DNA from: a virus
Reading direction: 5' to 3' (one strand)
Virus record (IMG/VR): IMGVR_UViG_3300048930_000409
Location: 12,212-76,211 of that record
DNA length: 64,000 nucleotides
Position 1 is the first letter of the stretch; each line of letters opens with the position of its first letter. Below, piece by piece: positions 724 to 62,592 of the stretch. Below the pieces are notes generated by a model. The model saw nothing but the letters and a program-made list of their open reading frames with translations, was not told the origin of the DNA and searched no databases. A program made the position numbers and the translations under genes.

Positions 724-1293
724 ATGAAGCTCGGCATCGTGAAGAAGGCGGCGGTCAAGACCCCCGCACCGGCGAAGAAGAAAGTGGCCGCGAAGGCCAA
801 GACCACCGACATGGTGACGGCCTCACTCGAGAACGCCGCCCCGGCCCCGGACGAGGCGTCCGCCCCCGCCGCCAAGGCCGACAAGACGGCCAAGGCCGAG
901 AAGGCCCCCAAGGCGCCCAAGACCCCGAAGGAGAAGGCGCCGTCGAAGTTCGTCTCCCGCGACGCCCACGCGTTCACGCTGCCGAACGGCGACAAGTTCA
1001 ACGACCGCCTGCGCGTGTCCGAGTTCCAGGACCTGACGTTCTACCAGAACGGCACCAAGAAGCTCACGGACGCCCAGCTGGTCGAGCTCTGGCAGGAGCA
1101 GTTCCCGACCGCGTGCGGCGGGGCGTTCAACGTCTTCCACGTCAAGGGTGCCCGCCGCGACTACAACGCGGGCAAGCACTCCAAGATGTTCGACGGCGTC
1201 AAGACCGGCGACCGCGTCTCGGTCGAGTACGACGCCACCAAGGCCGTCGTGCCCGTCCGTGGCAAGGCCGCCCCCACGACCGCGACGGCGTAG
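724..1293 (+). CDS. putative DNA-binding protein: H1-like Ala/Lys/Pro tail plus conserved HTH-like domain (paralog 1)
   Basis: GGAGG RBS; core FQD...KLTDAQLVELWQEQFP...HV..AR.DYN.G shared with 7004-7537 and 61915-62592. Confidence 0.8.
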   Translation: MKLGIVKKAAVKTPAPAKKKVAAKAKTTDMVTASLENAAPAPDEASAPAAKADKTAKAEKAPKAPKTPKEKAPSKFVSRDAHAFTLPNGDKFNDRLRVSEFQDLTFYQNGTKKLTDAQLVELWQEQFPTACGGAFNVFHVKGARRDYNAGKHSKMFDGVKTGDRVSVEYDATKAVVPVRGKAAPTTATA

Positions 1294-1315
1294 GCCCTCC
1301 GACTCCGTCGTCGCG

Positions 1316-1359
1316 CCCGGTGTGCCTTCCCCTCCCAGTCGAAGGCACACCGGGTTTTT
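1316..1359 (+). terminator. intrinsic terminator
   Basis: 14-bp stem CCCGGTGTGCCTTC/GAAGGCACACCGGG followed by T5. Confidence 0.85.
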
Positions 1360-1373
1360 CTCTGGAGATATGC

Positions 1374-1604
1374 ATGGCCCTCAAGTGCTGCCCCGCGATG
1401 GTGGTCACGGTGCTACCTTCACACACGCCGCTGCGGTCGCGCACCATCGAACGCTTGTGCGGTGAGCCGCTCAATCCTGGGGAAGAGCTGTGCGAGCACC
1501 ACCGGGCCGAGCAGGCCGAACTGAGCCGAAGGATTGCTCGCCGTAACGCCCAGAAGTTGCAGGATTACATGAAAGGCAAAGCCCGTGCCAAGACGGACGT
1601 TTGA
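1374..1604 (+). CDS. small Cys/His-containing hypothetical protein
   Basis: GGAG RBS; MALKCCP...LCG...LCEHH. Confidence 0.55.
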   Translation: MALKCCPAMVVTVLPSHTPLRSRTIERLCGEPLNPGEELCEHHRAEQAELSRRIARRNAQKLQDYMKGKARAKTDV

Positions 1605-1869
1605 CATCCAGGGTCATACGACAGAAGTCGTGCGCCTGCCGTTCTTCGCGGGTCCGGATGGACACCTCGCGATCGAGGCGCACTTCATGAACAAGTGTCT
1701 GTCCGTGTTGAAGATGGTCTCGTCCAAGGCCGGTGATTCCGATACGGTCATTCACTTGACCGACACACGGCTCATCTACGGGATAGAGTGTCTGGATTCA
1801 CTCATTCTCGGGTTGACGGCGTTCCGAGAAGAACTGCAGAAGAGAGCCAACCGTGGCGACATCCGATAG
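1585..1869 (+). CDS. hypothetical protein
   Basis: ORF tiles within the early operon. Confidence 0.55.
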   Translation: MPRRTFDIQGHTTEVVRLPFFAGPDGHLAIEAHFMNKCLSVLKMVSSKAGDSDTVIHLTDTRLIYGIECLDSLILGLTAFREELQKRANRGDIR

Positions 1870-2059
1870 TGGCATTTGCCCGCGCTGCGGCGAACCGATG
1901 CCCCAGGGCGAAGCCGACCACGCCACGGCGTGCATCTACGAGCCGTGCAACGAAGTCTCGTGCAAGGCGTTGCGGAATCCGCTGACCTTCGATCAGATGA
2001 CCGACGCCCAGCTGCACTTCCGCTACCACAAGATCGTCATCCCCCGGAGGCGTCCATGA
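1853..2059 (+). CDS. small zinc-ribbon hypothetical protein
   Basis: CPRC...C...C...C; overlaps neighbours. Confidence 0.5.
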   Translation: MATSDSGICPRCGEPMPQGEADHATACIYEPCNEVSCKALRNPLTFDQMTDAQLHFRYHKIVIPRRRP

Positions 2060-2265
2060 CCGTGACTGAATTACATGAACACTTGGAGTCGATGATGGCT
2101 TGCAACCCGGCCATCGCCGAGCTCCCCGTCCGCGTGGTGCGCCCGAACGAAGCTACTCCCGCGACCCCGGTGGACGGGATTGCCTACCACGCGTTCCTCG
2201 GTGAAGTCGTACTCGTGGCCCAGGTCCCGTACACGGTCGTCGAGCGGGCGAAACCCGGCCTGTAA
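2056..2265 (+). CDS. hypothetical protein
   Basis: GGAGG RBS, ATGA overlap. Confidence 0.6.
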   Translation: MTVTELHEHLESMMACNPAIAELPVRVVRPNEATPATPVDGIAYHAFLGEVVLVAQVPYTVVERAKPGL

Positions 2266-2268
2266 CAT

Positions 2269-2345
2269 GTTCTGCAGGACACGCATGGCCCGGCCCGGCC
2301 CGTGGTATGGGCGGCGCCCCGTTCGTGTCCTGCAGGACCCCTAAG
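2269..2345 (+). promoter_or_regulatory. CTGCAG-box element E1 (putative promoter flanked by palindromes)
   Basis: GTTCTGCAGGAC 2269-2280 and GTCCTGCAGGAC 2327-2338 around CCCGTGGTATGG; related to 25657-25748 and 45626-45707. Confidence 0.65.
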
Positions 2346-2359
2346 CCACGGAGGTGGCC

Positions 2360-2611
2360 ATGTCCGACGCCCCCATTCGTACCGTCACGCGTCGTTTCGG
2401 CTTTGACCGCGACGACCTGCAAGCCATCGCCGCCTGGTGGGTCGAGTCCGGCCAGGAACGGTGGGACAAGTCCGCCGAGGCCACGACGCCGGCTTGCGAG
2501 ATGGAGATTCAAGACTTCCTGGATGCCTGTGTCCGAGGCAACCTCGCGGCCATCAAGGCAGAGCTCGCTGCCCGTGAGCCCCAGAAGATGAAGGTCCGCA
2601 TCAAGCGGTGA
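2360..2611 (+). CDS. hypothetical protein ending in KMKVRIKR
   Basis: GGAGG RBS directly after E1. Confidence 0.65.
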   Translation: MSDAPIRTVTRRFGFDRDDLQAIAAWWVESGQERWDKSAEATTPACEMEIQDFLDACVRGNLAAIKAELAAREPQKMKVRIKR

Positions 2612-2692
2612 TTTTGCAGGTGACACCCGCCCCGCCTTTCGACGACGATGGGTGTGGGCGGATGGACCGCCCGACCCACATCGGAGGATGTG

Positions 2693-2974
2693 ATGCGAGA
2701 CGGAATTACGGTACACCCTGGCGGTGGCATGACCATCGAGGGCCCCATCCACATCGAGCTGTACCGGTTGATGGCGACCCGGTCGGCGCTGAAGCTGGAA
2801 GTCCGAACGGGCATGCAGATGTCCCGTGGCCGGTCGGCGGCCTCGGTCGCCCGGACCATCGTCGCGCTGCCAAAGCGCAACAAGGCCGAGCTGCTCGCCC
2901 AGCTGGAGGCGTACATCGAGACGTTTTGCGCCAACAACGGTCTCTCGGCCCCGTCGTGGGTGGGTGAGCGATGA
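2693..2974 (+). CDS. hypothetical protein
   Basis: GGAGG RBS; ATGA overlap with next gene. Confidence 0.65.
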   Translation: MRDGITVHPGGGMTIEGPIHIELYRLMATRSALKLEVRTGMQMSRGRSAASVARTIVALPKRNKAELLAQLEAYIETFCANNGLSAPSWVGER

Positions 2975-3369
2975 GCAACATCGAAGTTTGCCCCAAGTGC
3001 TACGGGGCCAAGGAGATCACCATCTTCCGCCAGACGAAGACGTGCGGCATGTGCGGCGGGCGCGGCTTCGTCGTCTATGGCACACCGCCCCCGGACGGCG
3101 CTTACGTCCTGCGCGCGACACCGGCGCCCCCGGACAAGCAAGGCTACCCGCTGGCGGCCGGGGGGTTCGACTTCACCCTGACCATCGAGGAGTACGCGGA
3201 CGCGGACCTCGGCCCCGGTCTGCATGTGCGCGTCTGGATTCACCACCCGAACGAGGCCTTTGACTGGAACGGCACGCCCATCGGGACGTTCCAAGACCTC
3301 GAGCACGCGGCGCGGGCGTGCAATACGCTGTTCCCCGCGTATCCCCCTGCATTCGTCACCACGTCGTAA
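2971..3369 (+). CDS. hypothetical protein with DnaJ-like CxxCxG zinc motifs
   Basis: CPKCYG...CGMCGGRG. Confidence 0.65.
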   Translation: MSNIEVCPKCYGAKEITIFRQTKTCGMCGGRGFVVYGTPPPDGAYVLRATPAPPDKQGYPLAAGGFDFTLTIEEYADADLGPGLHVRVWIHHPNEAFDWNGTPIGTFQDLEHAARACNTLFPAYPPAFVTTS

Positions 3370-3376
3370 GGAGCGT

Positions 3377-3829
3377 ATGGACACCTCACACACCATGCCA
3401 CTGGCGGACGCCATCGAGTTGATGGGCCGCGATTGGAACGACTTCACTCCCTGGTACACGGCGCTGGCCGAGAGACATCCGGCCGCATTCCCGTTGGCGC
3501 AGGCACCTATCCGCTGGCTGATGGCCATGCGCGGGTGGAAGTACCTGCGCGACGTCCCTCCGGGCCTGCCGACCCAGACCGGCGTGCCCCAGGACGCGCA
3601 ATCCTGGTACGAGCTCAACATCACCGAGCGCCCGTTCCTGGTCATCGTCGGCGAGGTCGTGACGATCCTGTTCCTCGCCGAACTGCACTACGAAGCGTAC
3701 GAGTTCATCCGGCGCGTGCGCGACCTGATCGCGTGGCTCGGCGAGAACGACGACTACGACGAAGGCCAACTGTTCCACATCGTTCAGGAGTACGTGCGGC
3801 CGACAACGGCCATGCGCGAACTCTCGTAG
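3377..3829 (+). CDS. hypothetical protein
   Basis: AAGGAG RBS, operon tiling. Confidence 0.65.
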   Translation: MDTSHTMPLADAIELMGRDWNDFTPWYTALAERHPAAFPLAQAPIRWLMAMRGWKYLRDVPPGLPTQTGVPQDAQSWYELNITERPFLVIVGEVVTILFLAELHYEAYEFIRRVRDLIAWLGENDDYDEGQLFHIVQEYVRPTTAMRELS

Positions 3830-3836
3830 GAGACCC

Positions 3837-4082
3837 ATGCCGCCGAAAAAGCTCAACCCCCGCACCAACGTCGAAGCCGCCATGGATTCCTTGCTACTCG
3901 CCGGACAAGCACGGCTGTGCATCGTGGCCACGTTCGACGTTCGGAAGTTGAAGACGTCTGACGTGCTCCAGACCGTCACCGAAGCTCTCGACGCCCTTCG
4001 GAATCAGGGTAAAATCGAGGCCGCCACCATCGAGTGGCCCCCGACCGACCCCCACGTCGAGGACGTCACACACCTGAACTAG
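3837..4082 (+). CDS. hypothetical protein
   Basis: AGGAG RBS. Confidence 0.6.
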   Translation: MPPKKLNPRTNVEAAMDSLLLAGQARLCIVATFDVRKLKTSDVLQTVTEALDALRNQGKIEAATIEWPPTDPHVEDVTHLN

Positions 4083-4090
4083 AGGAGCCC

Positions 4091-4381
4091 ATGCCACACG
4101 ACATCGTCACAGCCCAGATGTCCCCCACCCAGCGGGACACCATGTACCGACTGGCGAACACCGTCGCAGAAAGCTTGATCGCGGCGGGCGGCAACGAAGA
4201 CGTTCGCATCTCGACGGTCGCGCTGCTGCGCGTCATCGCGGCCGTCATGGCGCGAAATCCCTGGGGCCGAGATCCGGTGACGCAGGCGCACATCAGTGAG
4301 CTGTTGCCGCTGTACGTCCGCGCCGCCATCGAGTCCAACGACGGGAGTCGCATCATCCGACCGTTTTCCAAGTTGGTGTAG
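4091..4381 (+). CDS. hypothetical protein
   Basis: GAGGAG RBS. Confidence 0.6.
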   Translation: MPHDIVTAQMSPTQRDTMYRLANTVAESLIAAGGNEDVRISTVALLRVIAAVMARNPWGRDPVTQAHISELLPLYVRAAIESNDGSRIIRPFSKLV

Positions 4382-4469
4382 CCCCGCAAGACAGGCACAC
4401 GCCCATCGCTTGACGGTATGATGGGTGTGTGCCGTGGACGGACCCCGGCCCGCATCGGAGGATGCGACG

Positions 4470-5195
4470 ATGAAGAACACGCCCGACCCGATTGCCGCCC
4501 GCATCATCAAGCTGTTCAACATGGCCACCCATGCCAACTCGAATCCCTTCGAGGCGGAGTTGGCCATGACCAAGATGCGCCAGATGATGGCGGAACACGA
4601 CCTGTCGCTGGCCGACGTCGAGGCCGCCGCTGGGCGCACCGCCGAAAAGCCCCGCATCGAGATCGTCAAAGTCACGTCCTACACCCGCAAGGGGTTGTTG
4701 GCCCGCTATGACCACGCCATCGCCAACGCGGTCGCCACGCTGACTTCGACGTCCGGGTGGCTTCAGACCCGGTACCAGGGACCGCACAAGTGGCAGTCCA
4801 TGCAGTTCATCGGCACCCCGGCCGATGCCGAGCTCGCCGCCCAGTTGTTCCACGTCTTCATCGGCGCCGCCCGCCACTACGCCCGGCTGGCCTACGGCGG
4901 CACGTGGAAGGTCAATCACTCATCCTTCGTGTACGGGTTCGGTAACCGCCTGAACGAGCGGGCCAAGGACTGGATGTCCGTGGTCGAACCCGCCAAGCGA
5001 GCCCAGTACGGCATGATCTTGGTCGGCAAGTCGGCGGCAATCGATCAGTACAAGAATGAGTTGCTCGCCCCGTTCAAGGATCAGAAGAAGAAAAAAGTCC
5101 GGGACGTCGCCATCAACACCGAGGCGTACTTCAAGGGCGTCGACCGGGCCAACAACACCGACCTACTGAAGTCGGCCAAGATCGGCGGCCGGTGA
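4470..5195 (+). CDS. DUF2786-like protein
   Basis: N-terminal RIIKLFNMA...NPFEAELAMTKMRQMMAEHDL pattern; SFVYGF and AYFKG motifs typical of the family. Confidence 0.75.
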   Translation: MKNTPDPIAARIIKLFNMATHANSNPFEAELAMTKMRQMMAEHDLSLADVEAAAGRTAEKPRIEIVKVTSYTRKGLLARYDHAIANAVATLTSTSGWLQTRYQGPHKWQSMQFIGTPADAELAAQLFHVFIGAARHYARLAYGGTWKVNHSSFVYGFGNRLNERAKDWMSVVEPAKRAQYGMILVGKSAAIDQYKNELLAPFKDQKKKKVRDVAINTEAYFKGVDRANNTDLLKSAKIGGR

Positions 5196-5464
5196 TGGGG
5201 TGGCTTCTCCTGGCGTTCGTCGCGGCCATCGTGGCGGCGTTCTTAGCGGGCTGTTTGGCCACGGCCGGGAACATGCCCGCGCCCCCGCCCCCGGACATCC
5301 TGCAGGAACCGCCAGCCCCCCGGAAGGGGTGGGTCATTGTGACCGGGCGGGGCAAATCGGCCAAGACGTGGAATTTCCCTGTGGACAACGAAGGCGTGGC
5401 CATTGGATTATTCACCCAGAAGGGCGGCAATCTGGCCGCCATCACGGATTCGAGGCCTGCATGA
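5195..5464 (+). CDS. small membrane-anchored protein
   Basis: Hydrophobic N-terminus; TGATG overlap. Confidence 0.55.
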   Translation: MGWLLLAFVAAIVAAFLAGCLATAGNMPAPPPPDILQEPPAPRKGWVIVTGRGKSAKTWNFPVDNEGVAIGLFTQKGGNLAAITDSRPA

Positions 5465-5559
5465 AAATCATCCGGTCGTACCGCGAACTCGCACTCTGGA
5501 CGGTGGTTCTGGCGCTGGTACTGACGTGGGTCGCTGCTGTGCTGACGGAGCACCTGTGA
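5461..5559 (+). CDS. very small membrane peptide
   Basis: Coupled overlaps on both sides; one hydrophobic helix. Confidence 0.4.
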   Translation: MKIIRSYRELALWTVVLALVLTWVAAVLTEHL

Positions 5560-5807
5560 TGCCGGGTGCTCCGCGCACGTACGAGCCAACGCAGTACCCC
5601 ATCCCCGGTCAGGATGGGCCGGGCGGCTTCAAGCACCGGTTGGCGCAGTACATCAAAGACCTGCCCGACCACCTCGAGATCGAATACGTACGTCAATGGT
5701 TACCAGGCGAGGAACGGTTCACCGTTGATTGGCGCGAACAGGCCCGCCGCATCCGGGAGGGTGCCCCCTATGAGCTCACGATTACCATCCGTGACCGTCG
5801 GCGCTGA
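5559..5807 (+). CDS. hypothetical protein
   Basis: TGATG overlap, GGAG RBS. Confidence 0.55.
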   Translation: MPGAPRTYEPTQYPIPGQDGPGGFKHRLAQYIKDLPDHLEIEYVRQWLPGEERFTVDWREQARRIREGAPYELTITIRDRRR

Positions 5808-6069
5808 CCGGCACCCCGGTCCGTACTACGTCCGCGTCGGTTCGCTTGGGTGGCTGGCCTGGGACAAAACGGTCACCGACAGCCCCTTGCGTTCCGAAGT
5901 CGCCGCGTTCGAAGACAAGACAGAGAGCTTGATCGCCGCGATTTCGGCAACCCTTCAGACACGGCAAACCGTGTCGGTGTGTGTGTGGGCACGTGGAACG
6001 CCCACTGCAGGGGACTTACAGGGCTTCATGACGGTGGCGTGGTACACTCCGGGTAAATCGGGGGCTTAG
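5791..6069 (+). CDS. hypothetical protein
   Basis: ORF tiling; start uncertain. Confidence 0.45.
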   Translation: MTVGADRHPGPYYVRVGSLGWLAWDKTVTDSPLRSEVAAFEDKTESLIAAISATLQTRQTVSVCVWARGTPTAGDLQGFMTVAWYTPGKSGA

Positions 6070-6313
6070 GGTAAATGGGGACGGAAACTCTGCATCGCAC
6101 CCCCCACACACCCCATGTCCCCACCCCGCCATCACCCCTTTCCCTTTCTTCCTTTTTCTAACTTGATGTAAATGTGTAATATATGGAAATAAAAAAGAAG
6201 AAAGAGATACGGCGTCCGGGCGTGGGGGGTGGGGGCACCGGGGGGGTGGACTCCAGAGATTCCGTCCCCATTTCCCCGAAACACCCGACAGACCCGAAGA
6301 CCCCGAATTCCCC
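6055..6313. other. origin-like quasi-palindrome A
   Basis: 14-bp inverted repeat 6073-6086/6260-6273 enclosing C-rich, AT-rich and G-rich blocks; related to 61434-61670. Confidence 0.55.
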
Positions 6314-6872
6314 GGACGCGCCACGGCCCTTCCTGGCCAACGTGGACAAGCACCGGCAACGGTTCCACGGGGGGAAGCTGTTCTTGCGGGAACTGACCTA
6401 CGCCATCCAGCTGGACCAAGCTGAAGACAAGCTGGTGCTGCCGAGGTTGCGCCTGGAAGTGCGCGACGACCTGCCCACGTGGGTACCCCCGCGTCGACGG
6501 CGCAGACCCCGGCGGTCGCCCATCCCGAACCTGTCGCGGAAGAAGTACTTGCATTCCGTGCAGCTGAAGCAGTGGATGAAACGCATCATCGAAATCCTGG
6601 CCGGCGAGCGCCAACACATGCGCGTGCTGCTGGTGCAAGATCCCGAGGCCGCCCCGTTGGAATGGGAGGGTCAGTGTGAGACGTGCGGGGCGACGTTCTC
6701 GGTCCGGGGCATCTGGTCCGACCGGGACCGCTTGCCGGACCTGGGAGGCACGGCGTTCCTGGACAACTGTGGCGCCCCGGACCGCGCCATCCTGGAGCGC
6801 GTGATCATCCCCAGGAAGTCGCCGCAACGGCGGAATTGGCTCCGCATCAAGCGCATTGCGCCCCGGCGGTAA
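6183..6872 (+). CDS. hypothetical protein (start uncertain; 5' part overlaps origin-like element)
   Basis: 229-aa ORF, CETC motif, basic C-terminus WLRIKRIAPRR. Confidence 0.55.
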   Translation: MEIKKKKEIRRPGVGGGGTGGVDSRDSVPISPKHPTDPKTPNSPDAPRPFLANVDKHRQRFHGGKLFLRELTYAIQLDQAEDKLVLPRLRLEVRDDLPTWVPPRRRRRPRRSPIPNLSRKKYLHSVQLKQWMKRIIEILAGERQHMRVLLVQDPEAAPLEWEGQCETCGATFSVRGIWSDRDRLPDLGGTAFLDNCGAPDRAILERVIIPRKSPQRRNWLRIKRIAPRR

Positions 6873-6901
6873 AAAAACAGGGGGCAGACGCCGAATTAGT
6901 G

Positions 6902-6930
6902 TTGCAATGCATTTGCTGAGTGTGGACAAT
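6902..6930 (+). promoter_or_regulatory. sigma70-like promoter
   Basis: TTGCAA-N17-GACAAT upstream of the 7004 gene. Confidence 0.6.
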
Positions 6931-7003
6931 GGATATCGGCGCGTGGGTCGCATGTAGCGACCACGTAAGGCATCCCCCCTAGGGATCAAGGAGCACGAAC
7001 ATC

Positions 7004-7537
7004 ATGGCAGTCGAGACCACCCCCACCCGAAAGCTCGGGTCCATCAAGACCGTCGCCAAGAAGGCGGCCCCGGCCCCCGCCCCGAAGACCAAGGCCAAGA
7101 AGGTCGCCCCGGCCGCCGCGCCCGCCGTCGAGGCCAAGGCCGCCAAGACGCCGGCCGCGCCTCGCGAGCGCAAGACCGAGGGTCCGCGCGGTGCTCGCGG
7201 CATGGTGGGCGTGACGTCCGGCCTGTCCATCGCGGCGTTTCAGAACGAGTTGATGCGGAAGAACTTCCGCGCCAAGCTCACCGACGCGCAGCTGGCCGAG
7301 GCCATGCGCGTGGAGTTCCCGAGCGCCATCGCCTACACCGAGAAGCACGTGGCGGGCATCCGCTCGGGCTACAACACCGGCGCCCGTGGCAACGAGAAGC
7401 CCGACACGCCGCTGCCGCGTTTCGGCGAGGACGGCAAGCCGGTCACGGCGCGTGGCAAGGCGCCCAAGGAGCCCAAGGCCGAGAAGGCCGAGAAGGCGCC
7501 GAAGGCGAAGGTCACGACCAAGACCAAGAAGGGCTAG
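7004..7537 (+). CDS. putative DNA-binding protein: H1-like tails plus HTH-like domain (paralog 2)
   Basis: AAGGAG RBS; FQNEL...KLTDAQLAEAMRVEFP...HVAGIRSGYNTG. Confidence 0.8.
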   Translation: MAVETTPTRKLGSIKTVAKKAAPAPAPKTKAKKVAPAAAPAVEAKAAKTPAAPRERKTEGPRGARGMVGVTSGLSIAAFQNELMRKNFRAKLTDAQLAEAMRVEFPSAIAYTEKHVAGIRSGYNTGARGNEKPDTPLPRFGEDGKPVTARGKAPKEPKAEKAEKAPKAKVTTKTKKG

Positions 7538-7571
7538 CGCGGCGGCGTCCTCCGTGACGCGTTGGCACTCG

Positions 7572-7608
7572 ACGGCCGGGATGGACGAAAGTCCCCCGGC
7601 CGTTTGTT
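7572..7608 (+). terminator. intrinsic terminator-like hairpin
   Basis: ACGGCCGGG..GGAC-GAAA-GTCC..CCCGGCCGT then TTGTT. Confidence 0.65.
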
Positions 7609-7622
7609 CAGGGAGATACTCC

Positions 7623-9785: not shown

Positions 9786-9788
9786 TAC

Positions 9789-12736: not shown

Positions 12737-12777
12737 CCCGCCCACCCGACTTCGACTTGGGGACGGCGGAGGGGATT

Positions 12778-15436: not shown

Positions 15437-16591
15437 ATGCCTGACTACGCTGACGCGGGCCACCGCCCGCACGCCGACCACCGGGGGGAGACCCCTGACT
15501 TCAAGATCACGAATGGCCCCGAGTCCATTTCCGTGACGCTGGACACCTGGGGGCCTCGCGACTACTACTCCGCGATGTTCGACTACCTCCAGTCGAACTG
15601 GGGCGGGGCGCCGTCGCGGATTCAGGAGGCGTTGGACCACCCAGAAATTGACGTCGACCACGATGTCGAAGTGTACCTCGACGCGTGCTTCGGCGGGCGC
15701 ACACTCCAGCAAGTGTTGGAGGGCATCACGTTCTGGTTCACCATCGACGGCGTAACTCGCGCCATGACTCATGAGATGGTGCGTGCTCGGTTCGCCGCGT
15801 TCATGCAGCATGGCGGGCGCGACAACGACTGGCGCCATCGGGACTGGACCATGCCCGAGACGATCCGCCGGGCCTCAGGCGCTCGCATGCCGCCGCATCC
15901 CACAGCGCCCTGGGACGGCAAACGAGGAAAAGACCGAGTCGACGCCAAGAACCAGTGGCTGAGAGAACAGCTTGACGCCGACCCGACACTCCGGTGGACG
16001 TGTATCACCGACCACCAGCCTGTCGAAGCGCTGCTCGGCGCCTACGACGAAATCCTGCCCGATGACCGGTTCGGGTTGCAGGATGTCATCGAACACCACC
16101 TCCGTGAAGGCAAGCGCATCTACGCCGCGCTGGTCGACGCAGGCATACCGTGGCAGGACGCGCGGCGGCTGCTGCCCATCGGCACGCAGACGTACATCCA
16201 CGGGATTTACAACTTCATTTCGTTGCGCGACTTCCTGGCCAACCGGATGGAGTTCATCATGGACTGGGAAATCAACTGCGTCGCGCAGCTGATGTACCGC
16301 GAGATCCTGATGAAGTGCCCGCCTCTCATCGGCAAGTACCTGGGGTCGCACTCCGACCGCCAGGGCCGTGCCGCGTTCGCCGGACTGGACTCGTGGCCCC
16401 CGGACATGAAGTACCAGCCCACGTTCGAGCAGGAAGACCCCGTGCTGACGCCGCGCCAGCATCGCCGTGAGCAGATGCCGTTCTGGGTCCTGGCCCAGTC
16501 GTCGTTGGACGGCGGGCCGGTGAAGTGGATTCCCACGAACGGCACCTACCCCCACGACCATCCCGACGCCCCCAAGCCGAGGACTCGGTGA
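15437..16591 (+). CDS. divergent ThyX (flavin-dependent thymidylate synthase) family protein
   Basis: FTIDGVTRAMTHEMVRAR, GIPWQDARRLLP, FLANR..WEI match the ThyX fold; RHRx7S signature altered to RARx7G. Confidence 0.8.
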   Translation: MPDYADAGHRPHADHRGETPDFKITNGPESISVTLDTWGPRDYYSAMFDYLQSNWGGAPSRIQEALDHPEIDVDHDVEVYLDACFGGRTLQQVLEGITFWFTIDGVTRAMTHEMVRARFAAFMQHGGRDNDWRHRDWTMPETIRRASGARMPPHPTAPWDGKRGKDRVDAKNQWLREQLDADPTLRWTCITDHQPVEALLGAYDEILPDDRFGLQDVIEHHLREGKRIYAALVDAGIPWQDARRLLPIGTQTYIHGIYNFISLRDFLANRMEFIMDWEINCVAQLMYREILMKCPPLIGKYLGSHSDRQGRAAFAGLDSWPPDMKYQPTFEQEDPVLTPRQHRREQMPFWVLAQSSLDGGPVKWIPTNGTYPHDHPDAPKPRTR

Positions 16592-25317: not shown

Positions 25318-25673
25318 CGCCTCACAAACGAGCCGGGTTGGTTGGGCTGGTCGCGTTGTTCTTCATCGCGTCCGTCTACGATGCGCGACAGTACAAGTGG
25401 GAGCGGGATGAACTGCGCCGGATGCTGGACGAGTCGTATGACATGAACTGGCGACTGATGCAGGACTGCCCGTCGGTGGCACCGTCGGGATCGCTGGCCG
25501 GGGAGGGCGTGCGATTGGAAAAGCCGTCCTGCCCCGAGTCCGGATGGTTTCTGGTTGACGGCCGTCTGGAGGGACGTGACTGCGAGGGAAAGGTTACGGT
25601 TGTGTTCGGACCGGGGGATGTGGGCGTCGGACGTGTTCCCGCGATGCCGGTCTTACGTCCTGCAGAACCCTAA
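25314..25673 (+). CDS. membrane-anchored hypothetical protein
   Basis: GTGA overlap; N-terminal hydrophobic helix. Confidence 0.5.
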   Translation: MTPHKRAGLVGLVALFFIASVYDARQYKWERDELRRMLDESYDMNWRLMQDCPSVAPSGSLAGEGVRLEKPSCPESGWFLVDGRLEGRDCEGKVTVVFGPGDVGVGRVPAMPVLRPAEP

Positions 25674-51455: not shown

Positions 51456-51482
51456 GTCCGTTCCTCCTTGCTGGTGGACGGG

Positions 51483-52481: not shown

Positions 52482-52517
52482 GTGCTGCTCTCCCTTGTTT
52501 CTGGGTTCGGGTGGACG

Positions 52518-52898: not shown

Positions 52899-52939
52899 GT
52901 GATTTGCTCCTTCTGACAGGTGTCAGGGGTCTGTTGATG

Positions 52940-56127: not shown

Positions 56128-57773
56128 TAGGCCGCCCCTTTCCAATAGGACTTCTTGGTGAGTGTGCCGAGGGTCTTCGGCCGAACTGGCGGTCGGTACA
56201 GTCTGGGAGCCAGCCCGCTGACCGCGTCAGGCCCGTCGTCATGGTCGGACGGGAACTGGTCATACTGCGCGAAAAACTCTGGATGGGTCTTCCGAAGGTG
56301 CCGCGCAAAGCGGATATGCCGGACCACGGGGTCCATCAGAGCCGGCTGCGAGTTCAGGATGCGCGTCATCTTCGAGACGGTATTGTCCACCGTATCGACC
56401 CGCACGGCAACTTTCTGGTTGAGCGCCTTCTTCCGCAACGCGTCGCCGTACAAGTTCTTGTACATGTTCTCTTCGACGGTCACCCGCGCCATCGTCCACT
56501 TGACGACCTCGATGATAGTGTCCATCTGCCGGTCGGGGGCGAGCTTGTGCATCTGGATGTCAAAGATCTCCACCCAGTTGTCTTTGGTCAAGCCGCCCGT
56601 CACCATGCAGAAGTAGTCCCGGTTGCCGCGCCGCATCTCACCGGGACGCTCGCCCCCGGCCGGGTCGACGTACGCCTTGACGAACCGGTACTCCTTCATC
56701 CGCGAGGCGTCCCAATCGATGTACTGGAACTCGTCGGTGCGGAACTCGATGTCCTCGGCGTTGCGGGCGAAGTTCAACATTTCTCGCGCAAAGGACAGGT
56801 CGCCCACCGTGGGGTCGGCTCGCAACTTGGCCAACTTGTCCAACGGCCAGACATCCGGCCACAACGCGGAGCCGTCATCCGTCCGGTTGCCCAACGGGAA
56901 CCGTTCTTCCTTCAACCGCATGTTGATGGCCCGCCACAGCAAGCCATCCCATTCCTCGGACGAGACCAGCGTGGCGATCAGACAGTCTTCGTGTGGAAGA
57001 TTCCCGATGACGAAGATGTCCCAATTGTCAGCGCCAAGGCCGATGAACGTGCCGCCGAACCACCGCTTGTGCTTCTGGCGCTTGTGGAACGTGTCGGCGG
57101 TTTCGGGGGACTCGGGGTCATCCAGAATCGCGAGATCAGGGCGGTGATTCTTAAACTTGACCCCGCGCATCTTGGACCCCATGCCCTTGGCCAAGATGGT
57201 GGCACCGGACTTGAAGACCAGCTGGTGGTCGGTCCATTTTGTGAACTGACCCTTGCGGTCGATAGCGGGAGCCAGATGAGGAAAATCATGTCGCAACTTC
57301 TCATTCTGCTCCAACTCCTCGATGATAGACTGCAGGTTGGCTTGGGCCGACGGCAACGACTCGCCGACCATCAACACAAACCATTTCTTCTTGTACGCCA
57401 GCTTCCACAGCGGCAGCGCCAGTCCGTACAACGTGGTCTTGCCGAACTTGCGGGGCGCGATGCGGGCCACCCGCTTGGCGACGCCAGGGTCTTCGGCGCG
57501 GTCCAGCAGGTCATCGTGCATCTCACAGAAGCCTTTGTCGAAGTGATGCGACAAATACTGTGCAATGAACGCCCTGAACGAATGTTCGGCGGCGGCGGCA
57601 TGCGCGGGGGGCGCCCATCGTTTGACACGGACGCGCAACGTCCTGATGGCGCCCTCCAGGAACTCCGCGCCCGTCGGCGGGTCCGGGGTCGGGGTCGCCG
57701 ACGGTCGGGGCACCACGCGCACTGCAGGACGTCCCATCAACGCCCCGCCCATCATGTCCTTAAGAAGCATCAT
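56127..57773 (-). CDS. terL: terminase large subunit
   Basis: APRKFGKTT, LAILDDPE, YVDPA, HDDGPDA; start uncertain. Confidence 0.92.
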   Translation of the reverse strand: MMLLKDMMGGALMGRPAVRVVPRPSATPTPDPPTGAEFLEGAIRTLRVRVKRWAPPAHAAAAEHSFRAFIAQYLSHHFDKGFCEMHDDLLDRAEDPGVAKRVARIAPRKFGKTTLYGLALPLWKLAYKKKWFVLMVGESLPSAQANLQSIIEELEQNEKLRHDFPHLAPAIDRKGQFTKWTDHQLVFKSGATILAKGMGSKMRGVKFKNHRPDLAILDDPESPETADTFHKRQKHKRWFGGTFIGLGADNWDIFVIGNLPHEDCLIATLVSSEEWDGLLWRAINMRLKEERFPLGNRTDDGSALWPDVWPLDKLAKLRADPTVGDLSFAREMLNFARNAEDIEFRTDEFQYIDWDASRMKEYRFVKAYVDPAGGERPGEMRRGNRDYFCMVTGGLTKDNWVEIFDIQMHKLAPDRQMDTIIEVVKWTMARVTVEENMYKNLYGDALRKKALNQKVAVRVDTVDNTVSKMTRILNSQPALMDPVVRHIRFARHLRKTHPEFFAQYDQFPSDHDDGPDAVSGLAPRLYRPPVRPKTLGTLTKKSYWKGAA

Positions 57774-58473
57774 CCGTCAGCACCTCGGCATCGATGGCGT
57801 CATCGTCGCGCCCCTTGCGTGCGGCCTGCTTCGGGTCCAGGGCGATGTGGCCCCAGGCGGTCTCGATCTTCTTGATGACCTCGGGGTCCTCGACATAGGT
57901 GGCCACGGCCAGGCCCATCAACTCCACCGCACGGCGGAACACGGCCAGCGACACGGTCCCGGTCTGGTTGATAGCATGCGCCCGCGAGATGAGCTTGCCG
58001 ACGCCGTCAATCAACTTCTGGACGTCGAACAAATCCGGCAACCGGGCAGGCATCGGGGCCTTCTGCCCCTGCTGCATGCGGGCGTGCCATTCCAGCAACG
58101 CCTCCTTGACGGCGTCGTAGTTGTCGACGTAGTCCAAAATCAACGCCCGCATCAACTGCGCCTCGGGCATCAGGTCCATCACGTCGGTGTCGGACGCGGA
58201 TACCTGATTGAGCCGCTCCCGGAGCGAGTGCCGCTTGATGGCGCTGTACCGGTTGGTGGTGACGCGGAGGTCGATTTCTGGAGGCTGTCGGACGAGCGCT
58301 GTGCTGCGAGCCGGGCTTCTTTCTTCTTTCGGAAGAACGCGGGGCTTCGCAGGCGCCACGGGACGCGCGTCCCGCGCAACGACGGCGGGGGCCACGCGCT
58401 TCCCAGGCTTGGGTGCCACCGGTGTTTTGCGGCGTTTGACTGGTCGATAGCCGTCGCGTCCGTCCACTGCCAT
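57760..58473 (-). CDS. probable terminase small subunit
   Basis: Directly upstream of terL; basic N-terminus, helical core; start uncertain. Confidence 0.6.
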   Translation of the reverse strand: MAVDGRDGYRPVKRRKTPVAPKPGKRVAPAVVARDARPVAPAKPRVLPKEERSPARSTALVRQPPEIDLRVTTNRYSAIKRHSLRERLNQVSASDTDVMDLMPEAQLMRALILDYVDNYDAVKEALLEWHARMQQGQKAPMPARLPDLFDVQKLIDGVGKLISRAHAINQTGTVSLAVFRRAVELMGLAVATYVEDPEVIKKIETAWGHIALDPKQAARKGRDDDAIDAEVLTDDAS

Positions 58474-59441
58474 GAGTTCGGGTCCAGGGTATAGAGAATC
58501 GTTGACGTGTAGGGTACACCATCGGCCCCGACACAGGGATACCGTTCCACCGGGTAACCGCGCACCATGATACGCCCGACGCGGAGCTCCCAGACAATCC
58601 ACGCAATCATCGCCGACGAGACGCCCAACGACGTCGCCAACGAGCCGTAAGTCGGCCACCGGTCGCGCGTCTCGGCATCCATCTCGACTTTCTGGATGGG
58701 TTGGCGCATGGTCCACCACGCCACGAGCGCGACCGTGTCGGGCCAGGCCCGGACCTGCACGCCCATGCCCTTGGTCGAGACCAGGATGACGCGCTGACCC
58801 TCCTCGGTGTAGACCCACGTCACCGCGCCGTACTCGGGCAGGCCCAGCCCTTTCCGGAACCGCGACCGCCACGCGGACCACTGCGCCCGCCCCGTCGCAA
58901 ACTGCGCCGAGCGGTCCGTCCGGGGGTACGCGGGCGGCGGCGTCAGGACACCGACCGGCCGGTCATTCAACAGCTTATGCTTGACACACCACGGCGAGGC
59001 CATGAACACCCCGACGGCATCCGGGGGGACCCAGGACGGGGTATGGGTGCCTTGCGGGGCGTCCTTCTTCTTCACCACGCGCACGGCGTTGGGGCACCCC
59101 GGCACCGTGCATCGAGGCCGCACGCTGTGGGGCAGGGCAATCGGCTTCTGCGACGTGGGGGAATGGTACCGGCGCAGGTCGCGGCACCGCCCGCACTCGG
59201 TGCGGTACCGGGCGACGCCGTTTCGGATTTCCTTGAACTGGGCGGGGCGGCCGCACTTGCACGCGGGCCGGGCCTTGCCTCCGCGGACCGTCGGCGTCAG
59301 GACAGTCGCGCGGGGCTGGTTCGGGCGAATGGGGGGCGGCGGCTCCCGCAACGGCGTCAGCACGTTGGGGAGCACGCCATCCAGCAACGCTTTCAACGGC
59401 GACGGGTACGCGGCCCGTGACGCCGGAGTCCGGCGCTTCAC
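58179..59441 (-). CDS. hypothetical protein with tandem zinc-finger-like motifs and possible HTH
   Basis: CKC..CGRC; CTVPGC..WCVKH; 3' end overlaps the TerS candidate. Confidence 0.5.
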   Translation of the reverse strand: MKRRTPASRAAYPSPLKALLDGVLPNVLTPLREPPPPIRPNQPRATVLTPTVRGGKARPACKCGRPAQFKEIRNGVARYRTECGRCRDLRRYHSPTSQKPIALPHSVRPRCTVPGCPNAVRVVKKKDAPQGTHTPSWVPPDAVGVFMASPWCVKHKLLNDRPVGVLTPPPAYPRTDRSAQFATGRAQWSAWRSRFRKGLGLPEYGAVTWVYTEEGQRVILVSTKGMGVQVRAWPDTVALVAWWTMRQPIQKVEMDAETRDRWPTYGSLATSLGVSSAMIAWIVWELRVGRIMVRGYPVERYPCVGADGVPYTSTILYTLDPNSWQWTDATAIDQSNAAKHRWHPSLGSAWPPPSLRGTRVPWRLRSPAFFRKKKEARLAAQRSSDSLQKSTSASPPTGTAPSSGTRSGSGSIRYPRPTPT

Positions 59442-59662
59442 GCGGTCCGCTCCGGGGGCGGGACGATTTCATCAATCTGACGCGCCAGCGAGGCCGACGC
59501 AACGCGAGGCCACTGTACGATGGTCGGGCCGGTCAGCACCTCGTGAACGCCGCGCAAGAACTTCTCCAACTCCTGGACGCGGGTTTCGAGATCGCGGATC
59601 TTTTTCTCCGCGGAACGGTGCTGTTGCTCGGCGGCGCGGTACATAGCGGATTCACTGTCCAT
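59438..59662 (-). CDS. small coiled-coil protein
   Basis: AAGG RBS; overlap coupling. Confidence 0.55.
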   Translation of the reverse strand: MDSESAMYRAAEQQHRSAEKKIRDLETRVQELEKFLRGVHEVLTGPTIVQWPRVASASLARQIDEIVPPPERTA

Positions 59663-60152
59663 CGGGCACCTTCACTTTGTGTCCCGTCATCGGGAAGATA
59701 TGCTGACAGTTGGGGCACTGCACGCGCCGATGCCGGTTCGTCGTGCCTCCGGTGCGGTCCTTGTTCTTGCCATACGTCGATGGCGGCGGATGTTGCGCGA
59801 AGTAGCGCTCCAGTTCGCCGGACGTCCATCGCTCGGCGATGGCCCGTTCCAGGACGCGGTCCCGCAGGTCGAGGTCCTTGATCCGCAACAGCATCTTGTG
59901 CGTGATCCAGGCCAGATGCGGCGCGGCTGGGCCCTCGGGGAAGGCTACGGCTACATCGTACAACGCGTGCAGGTGACTGCGACTCCGGCCCGTGATGCGG
60001 CTGGACGCCTTGAATCCGGGGTCCAAGGACCACCCCTGACCCCGGACCAGCCAGAAGCCTAGGTCCCAGGACGAGACGTCGTTGCGCCGCGCGTACATGC
60101 GGCCTTCTTCTTCCCACGCCGCGAACGACGGGCCAGGGTCCGGGCGCATCAT
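59652..60152 (-). CDS. LmbU-like DNA-binding regulator with C-terminal zinc ribbon
   Basis: SSWDLGFWL, VAVAFP, WITH, LERAIAERWTSGEL; CPNCQH. Confidence 0.6.
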   Translation of the reverse strand: MMRPDPGPSFAAWEEEGRMYARRNDVSSWDLGFWLVRGQGWSLDPGFKASSRITGRSRSHLHALYDVAVAFPEGPAAPHLAWITHKMLLRIKDLDLRDRVLERAIAERWTSGELERYFAQHPPPSTYGKNKDRTGGTTNRHRRVQCPNCQHIFPMTGHKVKVPDGQ

Positions 60153-60460
60153 CCTGGCAGAACTGAGCCCGGCAACGTCGGACCCGGATGCCGGGGCCAC
60201 TCCGGCGGCAGCGGCATCCACTCCACGATCCGGGCCGTCAGCGGCGCGTACTGCACGCCGTTGAACGTCAGGAATTGGCCGTGGAGGTCGCTCCACACGG
60301 CGACCGCGACGAACAGCTGGTTGGTCCGGCGCGACCAGGCCTTGACCAGCACCGGGTCGGCTGGGCTCGGGCCGTGGGGAATCGAGTGGGCGTCGTGCCA
60401 GACCAGGATCGGTGATTGGAGCCAGTCGGCGTGTCGAATCGGCAAGGGTTCGGTAGGCAC
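60149..60460 (-). CDS. DUF551-like hypothetical protein
   Basis: W...P...PVLV...EWMPLP. Confidence 0.55.
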   Translation of the reverse strand: MPTEPLPIRHADWLQSPILVWHDAHSIPHGPSPADPVLVKAWSRRTNQLFVAVAVWSDLHGQFLTFNGVQYAPLTARIVEWMPLPPEWPRHPGPTLPGSVLPG

Positions 60461-60715
60461 TCACTTATCCTCCGTGGGGTCATGCTTGGCCACCTGTGCG
60501 GCCCGTTGAATCAGGGCGCATGCGGTGCCAATCAACCGGCGGTACAAGGCCTCTTCGCTGAAATTCTGTTTTTTCGGAGGGGCGCCCCCGGATGTAAAGA
60601 TGATTTCCTTGTCCGTCACCGCATCGAGAAGCAGGCGCACTTCGTTGTCGGTGTACGGCCCGTTGGCCTCCATCTCGGTCAGGACGTCCATCCAGACACG
60701 CGTTGGGATATCCAT
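60461..60715 (-). CDS. hypothetical protein
   Basis: TGATG coupling. Confidence 0.55.
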   Translation of the reverse strand: MDIPTRVWMDVLTEMEANGPYTDNEVRLLLDAVTDKEIIFTSGGAPPKKQNFSEEALYRRLIGTACALIQRAAQVAKHDPTEDK

Positions 60716-61386
60716 CAGTACTCAACCCATCCCTGCGGCGTTTTCTTGACGCCTTGGGCTTTCAGTTGCCTGGGCGTCATCGCCTCGTACTTGGCGATCA
60801 TGTGCTCATTCGTACACAGGTAGACTGGCGCGGACGCGGCTTTCGCGGCGGGCTTCTGCGGAACGGCTTTCAAACGGCGCCTCGGTGCCGGGGTGGGGGC
60901 GGGTTTCTTGACCTTGCGGGGTGGGCGGGGCAGCACGGGGCGCGGCGGGCGTTCGGCGGCCAGCGCGGCAACGTGCGGGTTCGTCAGGGAGGGGATGTCC
61001 GACTTCGCGTGGCGGTGGCACGTCAGGGCGTAGCCGGGGGTGGCGGGGTCGGGCGGGCCGTAGATGTCGTAGGCATCGGCCTGCTCGGGGGTCATGTCCT
61101 CGATGTCCATCGAGGCGGGCATCCGGAGGGGATAGCGCCGGGCCACGCGACGGCAGCCGGGGACAGCACAGGTCGGCTCCTCCGTGGAGCGCGGCGGGGC
61201 TGTCATCGGATGCGGGGACTGCAAGGGATGGTTGCAGTGCCACGAGCACCACTTGCGGTACGAGGACACCACGGTGCCATCGGCGCGGGTGTAGCGCGAG
61301 CCAAGGGAGCGCGGGGCCGTACAGTTGGGGGCCTGGCACGGGGGGCGGTCATCGAGCGTCAGGGGGCGTCCATGCATATGCGGCAT
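60715..61386 (-). CDS. hypothetical protein with two Cx4C...Cx2H motifs
   Basis: CQAPNC..WCSWH; CAVPGC..TCHRH. Confidence 0.6.
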   Translation of the reverse strand: MPHMHGRPLTLDDRPPCQAPNCTAPRSLGSRYTRADGTVVSSYRKWCSWHCNHPLQSPHPMTAPPRSTEEPTCAVPGCRRVARRYPLRMPASMDIEDMTPEQADAYDIYGPPDPATPGYALTCHRHAKSDIPSLTNPHVAALAAERPPRPVLPRPPRKVKKPAPTPAPRRRLKAVPQKPAAKAASAPVYLCTNEHMIAKYEAMTPRQLKAQGVKKTPQGWVEY

Positions 61387-61433
61387 TATGCACCGTAGTG
61401 GTGGACGTGTCAACCGGGGAATATGTGGAATAA

Positions 61434-61670
61434 GGGGGGCGTTTCCGATTCGGTCTTCGCCCCCTACCCCCCCCCGCCACCCCCGGACCGCCCCGTTCCT
61501 TTTCTCTTTCTTATTCTATATATACCATTTTTACATTAAGTCTTTAAAAAGAAGAAGAAGGGAGGGGAAAAAAGAAGGAATGTGGGGGGGTCCGGACGGG
61601 GGGAGGGGGGTGTAAGGTTTGTGGGAAACGCCCCCCATTTACCGAAGGCACCCGAAGACCCCCGATTTTG
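61434..61670. other. origin-like quasi-palindrome B
   Basis: 13-bp inverted repeat 61434-61446/61624-61636 around C-rich, AT-rich and G-rich blocks. Confidence 0.55.
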
Positions 61671-61914
61671 CCGTAAAACTCAGGGTTTCGTGAAACTGCC
61701 TTAGGAAAATCGCGAATTGTGGGGGTAAAAATCCAGGCGTTTCAGGCCTGTCCGGGAGTGATATACCCCAGAACGGGCTGGTCATCGACCAGTGACCAGT
61801 GCCGGATTTTTGCTTAAGGTCCGAGGCAGGTGCTAATGGTGTACCGGGCGCCGCGACGGCCCCGGACGCAAAAACGGTCACCGGTGGGTGACCCCAACGA
61901 ACGGACACCGCATC

Positions 61915-62592
61915 ATGGCACGCGCCACCACCCGCACCCGCACCACGACCACGACCCCGGCCATCATCGACACCACGCCCGACGTGTCGGTCGACGTCGC
62001 CACCCCGACCGCCGTCGTCATCGCCGACCCCGTCGACGTCGTCGCGACCACGGCCGACGTGGTCCCGTTCGCCGACGGGTACCGGTTGGCGGTCGTCACC
62101 GCGACCCGCACGGTCGGGGACGCCGTGGAACCCCGGTTCACCCCGGACATCGTCGCGGCGTTGACGACCGCGCCGATGATCGCCATCGCCGCCGGCATGG
62201 ACGCCGTCCGCGACGTCGTCCGGACCCCGGCCGACATCGACGCCGCCGTGACCCGGTTCGACGCGGCGGCCGCCGCGTACCACGTGCCGACGTCCGCGAC
62301 CACGGTCAACGTCGGGCGGTACACCGGCCGGAAAATCATGGACGGCCAAAACGTGATGTACGCCATCGCCGCCATCGTCGGCGCACCCGACGCGGCCATC
62401 GCCGTGGCGTGGCGGGCGGAATGGCCGGGCGCCCGGTGCAATTTCGCGGTCCGCAACGACCACGTGACCACGACGCGCCCCGTCGTCAACCGTGGCGCCC
62501 ATGGGTGGACCAACGGACACGGCGGCACGGCCGACGTGGTTCGCGCGTGGGGTGGCCCGTTCCGGTGCCACGACGTGAAACCGAACGCGTAA
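61915..62592 (+). CDS. HTH-like paralog 3, encoded without any AG/CT
   Basis: VGRYTGRKIMDGQN...PDAAIAVAWRAEWP.A...HV..TR..VNRGAHG aligns to paralogs 1 and 2; followed by a hairpin. Confidence 0.75.
   Translation: MARATTRTRTTTTTPAIIDTTPDVSVDVATPTAVVIADPVDVVATTADVVPFADGYRLAVVTATRTVGDAVEPRFTPDIVAALTTAPMIAIAAGMDAVRDVVRTPADIDAAVTRFDAAAAAYHVPTSATTVNVGRYTGRKIMDGQNVMYAIAAIVGAPDAAIAVAWRAEWPGARCNFAVRNDHVTTTRPVVNRGAHGWTNGHGGTADVVRAWGGPFRCHDVKPNA

Follow-up and report, generated by a model that had tools for sequence, protein, structure and literature searches.

Three genes for related small proteins, here called A, B and C, lie far apart in a 64,000-nucleotide stretch of viral DNA (bases 12212–76211 of the 76,211-bp IMG/VR virus record IMGVR_UViG_3300048930_000409, rated complete by CheckV), and the unit that contains C is free of AG and CT on both strands over almost 1 kb. 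We refer to this whole stretch as the window, and coordinates are those of the window unless a contig or the genome is named. The three genes and the AG/CT-free run are placed as follows.

724–1293, + strand: paralog A, 189 amino acids; N-terminal tail residues 1–92, core residues 93–181 (DNA 1000–1266); Shine-Dalgarno sequence GGAGGA
7004–7537, + strand: paralog B, 177 amino acids; N-terminal tail 1–68, core 69–148 (DNA 7208–7459), C-terminal tail 149–177
61915–62592, + strand: paralog C, 225 amino acids; basic N-terminal peptide 1–14, acidic linker 15–50, extra folded domain ~51–133, family core 134–216 (DNA 62314–62562)
61833–62801, no strand assigned: AG/CT-free run, 968 bp with zero AG/CT on either strand; only two more up to 62918

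By sequence comparison, A, B and C are true paralogs. BLASTP aligned A with B at 42% identity over 55 amino acids (E=5e-11), and the A–C and B–C pairs at E=5e-4 each. A profile of 57 family members from which every C-type row had been excluded found C at 49 bits (E=4e-11, Z=1e6), and one without A-type rows found A at 98 bits. Across an alignment of 13 sequences, Q, D, P.A, V, R and N.G are invariant and H nearly so. An earlier reading made from the DNA letters only (the sequence-only reading) had proposed a domain of about 65 residues common to the three genes; the kinship stands, while the shared core is about 80 residues long. The genome carries exactly three copies, and the same three are found in a sister contig (L003) with 95–99% identical proteins.

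The wider family was collected with an exhaustive HMMER search of 1.84 billion cluster representatives, which returned 699 clusters (50% identity) at E≤1e-3 and 215 at E≤1e-10, mostly of 100–290 amino acids. The core consensus is roughly G.T.G..V..FQN......N.K.KLTD.QLA..WR.EFP.A..YT..HV.G.R...N.G.H, followed by a P..P...YD..G tail. As judged from these sequence searches, the core family is new to the catalogues: Pfam has no family over the core in 60 members (a few of which have an additional N-terminal zinc ribbon or ribbon-helix-helix-like piece), NCBIfam and PHROG gave no core match, a sequence-profile search of the PDB gave 0 matches at E≤10, and the ESM Atlas offered no informative neighbour. 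Neither Pfam nor NCBIfam matched A, B or C to the HU/IHF, Lsr2 or H-NS families. The sequences so far come almost exclusively from metagenomes, where the proteins are unnamed or called 'hypothetical protein'.

At the density of the window, ~88 AG/CT would be expected in the 968 bp of the run (P ~4e-39), and the next-longest gap in the 76-kb genome is 88 bp. This probability rules out chance or base composition as the cause. The rest of the genome has an AG/CT rho of 0.80, compared with 0.82 in an unpurged relative. The ban extends to codon junctions, the non-coding leader and the hairpins, and is thus a property of the nucleic acid and not of codon choice, so that a codon- or tRNA-level effect is ruled out as well. 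A context-specific deamination footprint was also rejected, since the purged stretch shows no excess of AA/TT and simple AG>AA/GG changes do not account for the replacements. GGCC, CCGG, GATC, other 4–6-bp palindromes and ATG-type protospacer adjacent motifs (PAMs) remain in the run. In the literature searched, no unit lacking an entire dinucleotide is described, and as far as this search shows, the C unit is an undescribed, extreme case of motif avoidance.

The edges of the run are best read against the elements that surround the three genes.

617–645, + strand: sigma-70-like promoter match of A, TATACA, 17-nt spacer, TATCAT; 9/12 consensus matches (shuffle mean 0.1); a consensus match only
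1315–1355, + strand: terminator hairpin of A, 15-bp stem followed by a U run; -34.2 kcal/mol, z -5.45
6902–6932, + strand: promoter-like element of B, TTGCAA ... CAATGG, of a type shared with the element before C
7571–7604, + strand: hairpin 3' of B, followed by GUUUGUU; -38.1 kcal/mol, z -2.65
61810–61839, + strand: promoter-like element of the C unit, TTGCTTAAGG ... GCTAATGG; AG and CT still present; below the 9-of-12 sigma-70 threshold
61845–61914, + strand: 5' leader of C, two hairpins, no Shine-Dalgarno sequence
62605–62630, + strand: hairpin 3' of C, GC-rich, no U tract; -29.8 kcal/mol
62691–62879, + strand: second small open reading frame (ORF), 62 amino acids, mostly within the AG/CT-free run
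62887–62910, + strand: second hairpin; ordinary AG/CT density from 8 nt past its end

With hairpins of -34, -38 and -30 kcal/mol downstream and promoter-like elements upstream, each copy appears to head its own unit, as had been suggested; these elements are sequence patterns. The pattern TTGC, 19–22 nt, hAATGG has + strand matches only before B and C (0.85 in shuffles, both strands together). The run starts at 61833, at the CT inside the -10-like GCTAAT; taken to 62918, the stretch covers the leader, gene C, its hairpin, the second small ORF and the hairpin of the latter. In the window and in two distant relatives (L010 and L008), the purge sets in within or at the 3' end of the -10-like hexamer, with 5–6 AG/CT retained in the -35 element and spacer, and the promoter and ~350 bp upstream of it are AG/CT-rich. 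In L010 and L008 it stops 20 nt beyond the hairpin, where the next gene has begun a few nucleotides earlier. C has no Shine-Dalgarno sequence because GGAG contains AG.

The promoter-like element of C is kept in the window, L003, L004 and L010 (the C proteins of the latter three are 58–95% identical). The stems of the C leader are paired via compensatory changes in L004, and recur in L008 and L010 (leader positions: L004 ~4860–4937, L010 757–815, L008 8–68). Even in L004, which is otherwise unpurged, the leader is AG/CT-free over 91 nt, the longest such gap at that locus. The second ORF is heavily rearranged in L003 (86 amino acids) and still nearly AG/CT-free there; L008 and L010 are without it.

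Conservation and protein cost of the purge

The sister contig L003 keeps an AG/CT gap of 979 bp. Between its gene C and that of the window there are 52 substitutions, 0 of which create AG/CT (P ~3e-11 to 7e-10, with a null in which a random change creates AG/CT one time in three). A 96% relative of 61804–62611 with 32 substitutions, again 0 making AG/CT, occurs on contigs from three runs of a single wastewater metagenome study. On either side of this relative, the wastewater sequence is unlike the window, and the match gives a hint of the habitat of the phage and of an exchange of modules around the C unit.

Eleven orthologs of C were retrieved by protein search. Leu, Ser, Glu, Lys and Gln together account for 5–8% of residues in eight of them and for 12–16% in three. 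DNA was obtained for three distant orthologs of the low-composition kind (L008, L009 and L010, from JGI metagenomes), and 3/3 are purged. The gap of L010 extends over 750–1517, from the last base of a -10-like TTAAAA, and those of L008 (774 bp) and L009 (400 bp) are both bounded by contig ends. AG/CT density about doubles directly after the purge in all three. With L003 included, four other contigs have the gap, in orthologous units of 58–95% identity. L004 (62% protein identity) shares the promoter and leader, and its gene is of ordinary AG/CT density throughout.

In a maximum-likelihood tree, the three orthologs of normal composition lie beyond one branch (support 79/93), inside one of two C-type subclades; support for this branch is only moderate, and the tree could be biased by composition. 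Read most simply, these sequences indicate a purge that was already present in the ancestor of the C subfamily and was relaxed a single time. The sequence-only reading had taken one copy to be recoded free of AG/CT. The 968-bp run bears this out as to the sequence, while a recent recoding private to one copy or lineage is overturned by the three more distant purged orthologs and the tree, the purge being a trait of most of the C subfamily. As the gap is kept in orthologs and no substitution has created AG/CT, the purge is an old trait of the subfamily under selection: by sequence comparison, the C unit is kept AG/CT-free by purifying selection in at least five lineages.

This carries a cost for the protein, whose sequence makes almost no use of Leu, Ser, Glu, Lys or Gln. 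The five residues make up 4% of C, compared with 16% of the unpurged ortholog and 29% of A and B. Relative to the unpurged ortholog, Ile, Val or Met replaces Leu, Thr or Ala replaces Ser, Asp replaces Glu and Arg replaces Lys. Residues differ at 36/62 positions where the codon or junction of the ortholog has AG/CT and at 52/162 elsewhere (odds ratio 2.9, Fisher p=7e-4). Against the family profile, the unpurged ortholog reaches 57 bits and C 49. C contains zero AAG, GAG, CAG and CTN codons; its few Lys, Glu, Gln and Leu residues are served by AAA, GAA, CAA and TTG, codons that are otherwise avoided.

Predicted fold and tails of the family

AlphaFold2 was run on B with 13 sequences and on C with 69. 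The core of B was modelled with a predicted local distance difference test (pLDDT) score of ~80–86 as helices 76–90, 94–104 and 113–125 plus a short hairpin. The model of C has a mean pLDDT of 81, with values above 90 over residues 50–170; its helices 141–155, 159–169 and 182–192 repeat the pattern of the B core, and an extra alpha/beta domain (residues 51–133) is packed on the core. From the matching helix patterns and the profile match, the cores of B and C are predicted to have one fold.

In VIA comparisons, the B core reached Z 5.0–5.8 (root-mean-square deviation 2.5–3.6 Å over 51–56 residues), values to be read against unrelated helical models, which often reach Z 7–8. Its best neighbours were the N-terminal helix-turn-helix (HTH) domains of NiaR, FapR, DeoR, SorC and LsrR, and the G20C small terminase. 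A wide VIA search with the whole C model gave a best Z of 3.6, and Foldseek searches of pdb and BFVD with the B and C models gave nothing at E<1. The invariant Arg and Asn are located in the third helix, the usual position of a recognition helix. The core is thus likened to generic (winged) HTH domains such as those of NiaR, DeoR/SorC, FapR and the G20C small terminase by its three helices of similar length and order and its small hairpin; it differs from them in having no sequence similarity, no single match stands out, and the Z scores are within the range of unrelated helical models. We consider the predicted core HTH-like, with mostly DNA-binding neighbours, and at Z ≤5.8 claim no specific kinship.

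The HTH character proposed for the shared domain is therefore retained in this generic form, with three helices and (winged) HTH neighbours in the AlphaFold and VIA results, whereas the proposed link to the C-terminal HTH of sigma-54 found no support. Sigma54_DBD of Pfam did not match A, B or C at E≤1, nor any of 60 family members, and neither an RpoN-box motif nor another sigma-54 region was seen. The likeness to the RpoN-box domain is limited to a faint resemblance of fold. A sigma-54 chain (8red_M) is the top Foldseek row for B (E=1.1, probability 0.28), and the VIA match to 5ui5_V (Z 4.5) ranks 22nd, beneath many unrelated HTH domains.

Basic, disordered tails characterise the family. An N-terminal tail of at least 20 amino acids is present in 116/124 members with a clear core, with a net charge of at least +4 in 99/116. 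C-terminal tails have a net charge of -4 or less in 17/108 members, and P0010 and P0012 end in poly-Glu. Lys, Ala and Pro make up 57% of the N-terminal tail of A (net +11), 56% of that of B (net +12) and 66% of the C-terminal tail of B (net +8), and the tails of both proteins are considered disordered (those of B have pLDDT <55 in the AlphaFold2 model). Nearly all Lys is encoded by AAG (26 AAG and 1 AAA in A; 26 AAG and 0 AAA in B). This agrees with what had been noticed for two of the copies, namely Lys-rich tails that resemble histone H1 and are written mostly in AAG codons (56–66% Lys/Ala/Pro). Codon bias is strong in all three genes, whose G+C contents at third codon positions (A 0.97, B 0.94, C 0.93) are the top values among candidate genes of at least 100 amino acids; overall, the genome has a GC content of ~63%.

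The tails of C are of another kind. They contain 14–28% Lys/Ala/Pro, below an H1-like composition, together with the acidic linker, and C has a net charge of -1 with an acidic N-terminal half; the charge of the core is +2 to +4 in all three paralogs. Every C-type ortholog, purged or unpurged, has a basic N-terminal peptide of 10–15 amino acids followed by an acidic linker (e.g. MAARKGSRK in L004 and MSRRK in L010). The Arg/Thr tail of C had been seen as a substitute for a Lys tail, a claim we dropped, as no C-type ortholog has a long Lys tail. Likewise, the same short peptide in purged and unpurged orthologs rules out that it is a recoded H1-like tail. On sequence grounds, A and B are classic members of the family with Lys/Ala/Pro tails resembling histone H1, and C represents a distinct subfamily.

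Lys/Ala/Pro tails are known from actinobacterial HupB/HupS and from histone H1, and SPO1 TF1 shows that a phage protein can prefer modified phage DNA. A and B resemble these and other histone-like or architectural phage proteins (phi29 p6) in being small, probably abundant products of an early or replication arm, with basic tails of low complexity, a separate promoter and terminator for each, and an extreme bias in codon use. They differ in that the core is not of the HU/IHF fold and belongs to no catalogued family, that one genome holds three diverged paralogs, and that DNA binding is here putative.

Readings of the dinucleotide ban

With a probability of about 0.4, we favour a combined reading in which the family binds DNA, A and B coat it, C is an immediate-early factor, and an agent that reads the AG/CT step acts on the transcribed C unit. 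DNA binding is suggested by the generic fold match and the composition of the tails, and A and B would be abundant coating or architectural proteins. The placement of C as an immediate-early factor draws on gene order. An early and replication arm appears to run on the + strand from ~61.9 kb over the record junction to ~28.8 kb of the window, with genes for a SNF2-type helicase, a PD-(D/E)XK nuclease, a ThyX-like protein, an AAA_24 protein, a family A DNA polymerase and a Toprim primase. This rightward arm opens with C, and A and B follow it along the one strand after ~15 kb and ~21 kb, respectively. The temporal series put forward in the sequence-only reading, with C acting first, would likewise draw on this order of genes.

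The agent would most likely meet the C unit as RNA, or as DNA while it is melted or transcribed, and would read the two-base step AG/CT; the make-up of the C unit would let it remain intact and expressed when ordinary messages or genes come under attack. That the purge extends from the transcription start region, and not the promoter, to the hairpin or next start codon points to the transcribed unit as the target of selection. The message of C also appears armoured in other ways, by its 5' hairpins and its 3' hairpin. Since the rest of the genome is undepleted, the agent would matter for the C unit only, which fits a gene that works before, or independently of, all else.

Several observations weigh against this combined reading. 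One lineage (L004, P0069 and P0172) is without the purge. The fold match is weak and generic, with Z scores (≤5.8) below those that unrelated helical models often reach (7–8). An RNA agent by itself leaves the ban on both AG and CU on one message unexplained, and a symmetric ban is what would be expected of a reader of double-stranded DNA. AG/CT is near-ordinary elsewhere (rho 0.80), so the agent cannot simply destroy all DNA that bears it, and no candidate nuclease was identified.

A ban that is total, old and still selected implies an agent that reads only two bases, and we know of no restriction, CRISPR, modification or RNase system described as doing so. Identifying the agent would reveal a new principle of defence or counter-defence and the purpose of these early proteins, which form a sizeable, unannotated family (~700 clusters at 50% identity) with a probable role on DNA in early infection. 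The C subfamily also offers a natural experiment, as one gene can be compared with and without a total dinucleotide ban and the protein is visibly reshaped by it.

The alternative that survives best, although we regard it as unlikely, is avoidance of sites on the DNA that enters the cell first. The unit would be free of words read by restriction or CRISPR systems (e.g. NAG-type PAMs), and an early protective protein could then be synthesized before the remaining DNA is exposed, in the manner of T5 or T7. A ban that is symmetric between strands fits a reader of double-stranded DNA, and there are precedents: T5-like phages are documented to enter in two steps and to evade restriction (PMC10644984), and phages to be depleted of PAMs and other motifs (PMC4246573). 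The position of C at the head of the rightward arm is also suitable. The large terminase gene is ~4 kb away with leftward ORFs between, and the structural genes (large terminase, portal and a 1730-amino-acid ORF of tape-measure size, on the - strand from ~60.5 kb down to 29.1 kb) are oppositely oriented, so a cos or pac site may be near. As with the early DNA of T5, the first unit lacks the word and later DNA has it (0 in 968 bp compared with rho 0.80), while the promoter and the ~350 bp upstream of it are AG/CT-rich, so that DNA beside any nearby end is not site-free.

Nor does the record fix the physical ends. Its ends share a 126-nt direct repeat (genome 1–126 = 76082–76207), and although IMG/VR labels the record linear, circular assemblies typically carry such a terminal repeat; we regard this one as probably circular or circularly permuted, hence the ends of the DNA are not given by it. 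The loss of every AG far exceeds what any single known recognition site would need, and ATG-type PAMs, GGCC, CCGG, GATC and many 4–6-bp palindromes were retained. The C unit is thus like the T5 first-step-transfer DNA, the leading end of T7 and known cases of motif or PAM depletion in that early-gene DNA is depleted of a short word, presumably against an agent that reads sequence. It is unlike them in that a whole dinucleotide is affected and not a 4–8-bp site, in that the loss is total over ~1 kb and forces amino-acid replacements, and in that its bounds are the transcription start region and a hairpin, with the promoter unpurged, instead of a genome end.

A different doubt concerns the proteins. 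The core could be a protein- or RNA-binding module, docking for instance to the RNA polymerase of the host or to the ribosome, with the basic tails alone touching nucleic acid and doing so without specificity. The weak and generic fold matches, the acidic tails of some members (17/108 C-terminal tails; P0010 and P0012) and the net charge of -1 and acidic N-terminal half of C would all be compatible with this. We nevertheless consider it quite unlikely, because the best structural neighbours are nearly all HTH domains that bind DNA, the third helix, with its invariant Arg and Asn, is usually the recognition helix, and the core is basic in all three paralogs.

More improbable still is that the C unit is exempt from a modification. 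On this account, virion DNA would be modified in an AG/CT context, the C unit alone would be readable by the unadapted host RNA polymerase, and C, followed by A and B, would handle the modified DNA. A part as readers or shields of modified DNA had also been suggested in the sequence-only reading and is conjectural here. Context-specific modification of phage DNA is established (e.g. 7-deazaguanines in short motifs), and the purge sets in where DNA melts for transcription. The ThyX-like protein of the replication arm (15437–16591; PF02511, E=3e-18) is longer than usual at 384 amino acids, lies among unannotated genes and is of interest for a possible modification of the phage DNA. Against this account, the scanned proteins included no methyltransferase or transglycosylase, the promoter would carry the modification too, and all other early genes have a normal AG/CT content. 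A more far-reaching extension seems similarly improbable to us: the HTH-like family as a whole may consist of readers of the AG/CT step, or of a modification in that context, and the phage would boot from a unit that is invisible to such reading. C would be produced from clean DNA and RNA and would enable or protect the remainder of the genome before A and B take over as a bulk coat. If this is true, and if other phages purge other dinucleotides from units for early DNA-binding proteins, it would amount to a general and undescribed layer of phage–host conflict at two-base resolution.

The last alternative brings in a cluster of palindromes downstream of C.

63248–63756, no strand assigned: cluster of CAGGGAAAGCTCTCCCT-type palindromes, five of 16–17 bp; 8 strand-wise matches compared with 0.06 expected

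If the family, or C, bound very short AG/CT words, with these palindromes as high-affinity sites, C might keep its own unit word-free to avoid silencing itself, a proposal in line with a putative DNA-binding product, the AG/CT-dense cluster 0.2–1 kb downstream of C in every lineage and the doubled AG/CT density right after the purge in L008–L010, yet one we hold to be the least probable of all, as avoidance of a 16-bp operator does not require the removal of every AG, binding of C to the palindromes is purely conjectural, and A and B, the clearer DNA-coating paralogs, are unpurged and very rich in AAG.

Elements around the C unit and in the wider genome

A CAGGGAAAGCTCTCCCT cluster is found 0.2–1 kb downstream of every C-type gene, in the window and in L003 (6416–6902), L004 (6816–6845), L008 (977–1677), L009 (600–1342) and L010 (1653–2446). 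By their appearance the palindromes could be iterons or operators, and the cluster is a candidate marker of an origin or control region. A gene for a small membrane protein also lies downstream of C units. Beyond the cluster, this genome has an AT-rich stretch and, next to it, two parS-like GTTCCACGTGGAAC sites (perfect GTTCCACGTGGAACAAT) at 63891–63905 and 63932–63948, 41 nt apart and repeated at the start of the record. No parA/parB or integrase was seen among the proteins scanned.

Upstream, C forms a conserved divergent pair with a neighbour on the opposite strand (window 60715–61413, - strand; L003 3670–4437, L004 3918–4394, L010 1–393). This protein is rich in Cys and His (CQ.P.C and WCSWH motifs), has a Lys/Pro-rich C-terminal part and gave no Pfam, NCBIfam or PHROG match. 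The intergenic element before C consists of a C tract, a pyrimidine tract, an AT core (TTTTACATTAAGT), a purine tract and a G tract, with 100–140 nt free of GC/CG. It occupies 61455–61615 in the window, 4395–4560 in L004 and 395–560 in L010, and a diverged copy lies at 6095–6250, 0.8 kb upstream of B. From this arrangement, the region around the C unit looks like an origin or control region, and C may be its DNA-binding factor.

In megablast, blastn and tblastn searches of the GenBank phage collection, no record resembled this phage, and a family-pattern search of genome contigs gave no relative. IMG/VR was searched with the A1 pattern, P0019, P0014 and a degenerate DNA pattern, and the sister contig was the sole match. 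The genome also contains 40 copies of CTGCAG, many of them paired 58–80 bp apart in a gtcCTGCAGga context.

2272/2330, 25660/25740, 45629/45699, 8753/8831, 19700/19778 and 32265/32334 (window): CTGCAG pairs

The pairs at 25660 and 45629 flank similar sequences (ctaag...cgggggtccgg.catacca), and the paired sites may represent a repeated regulatory element or a small RNA.

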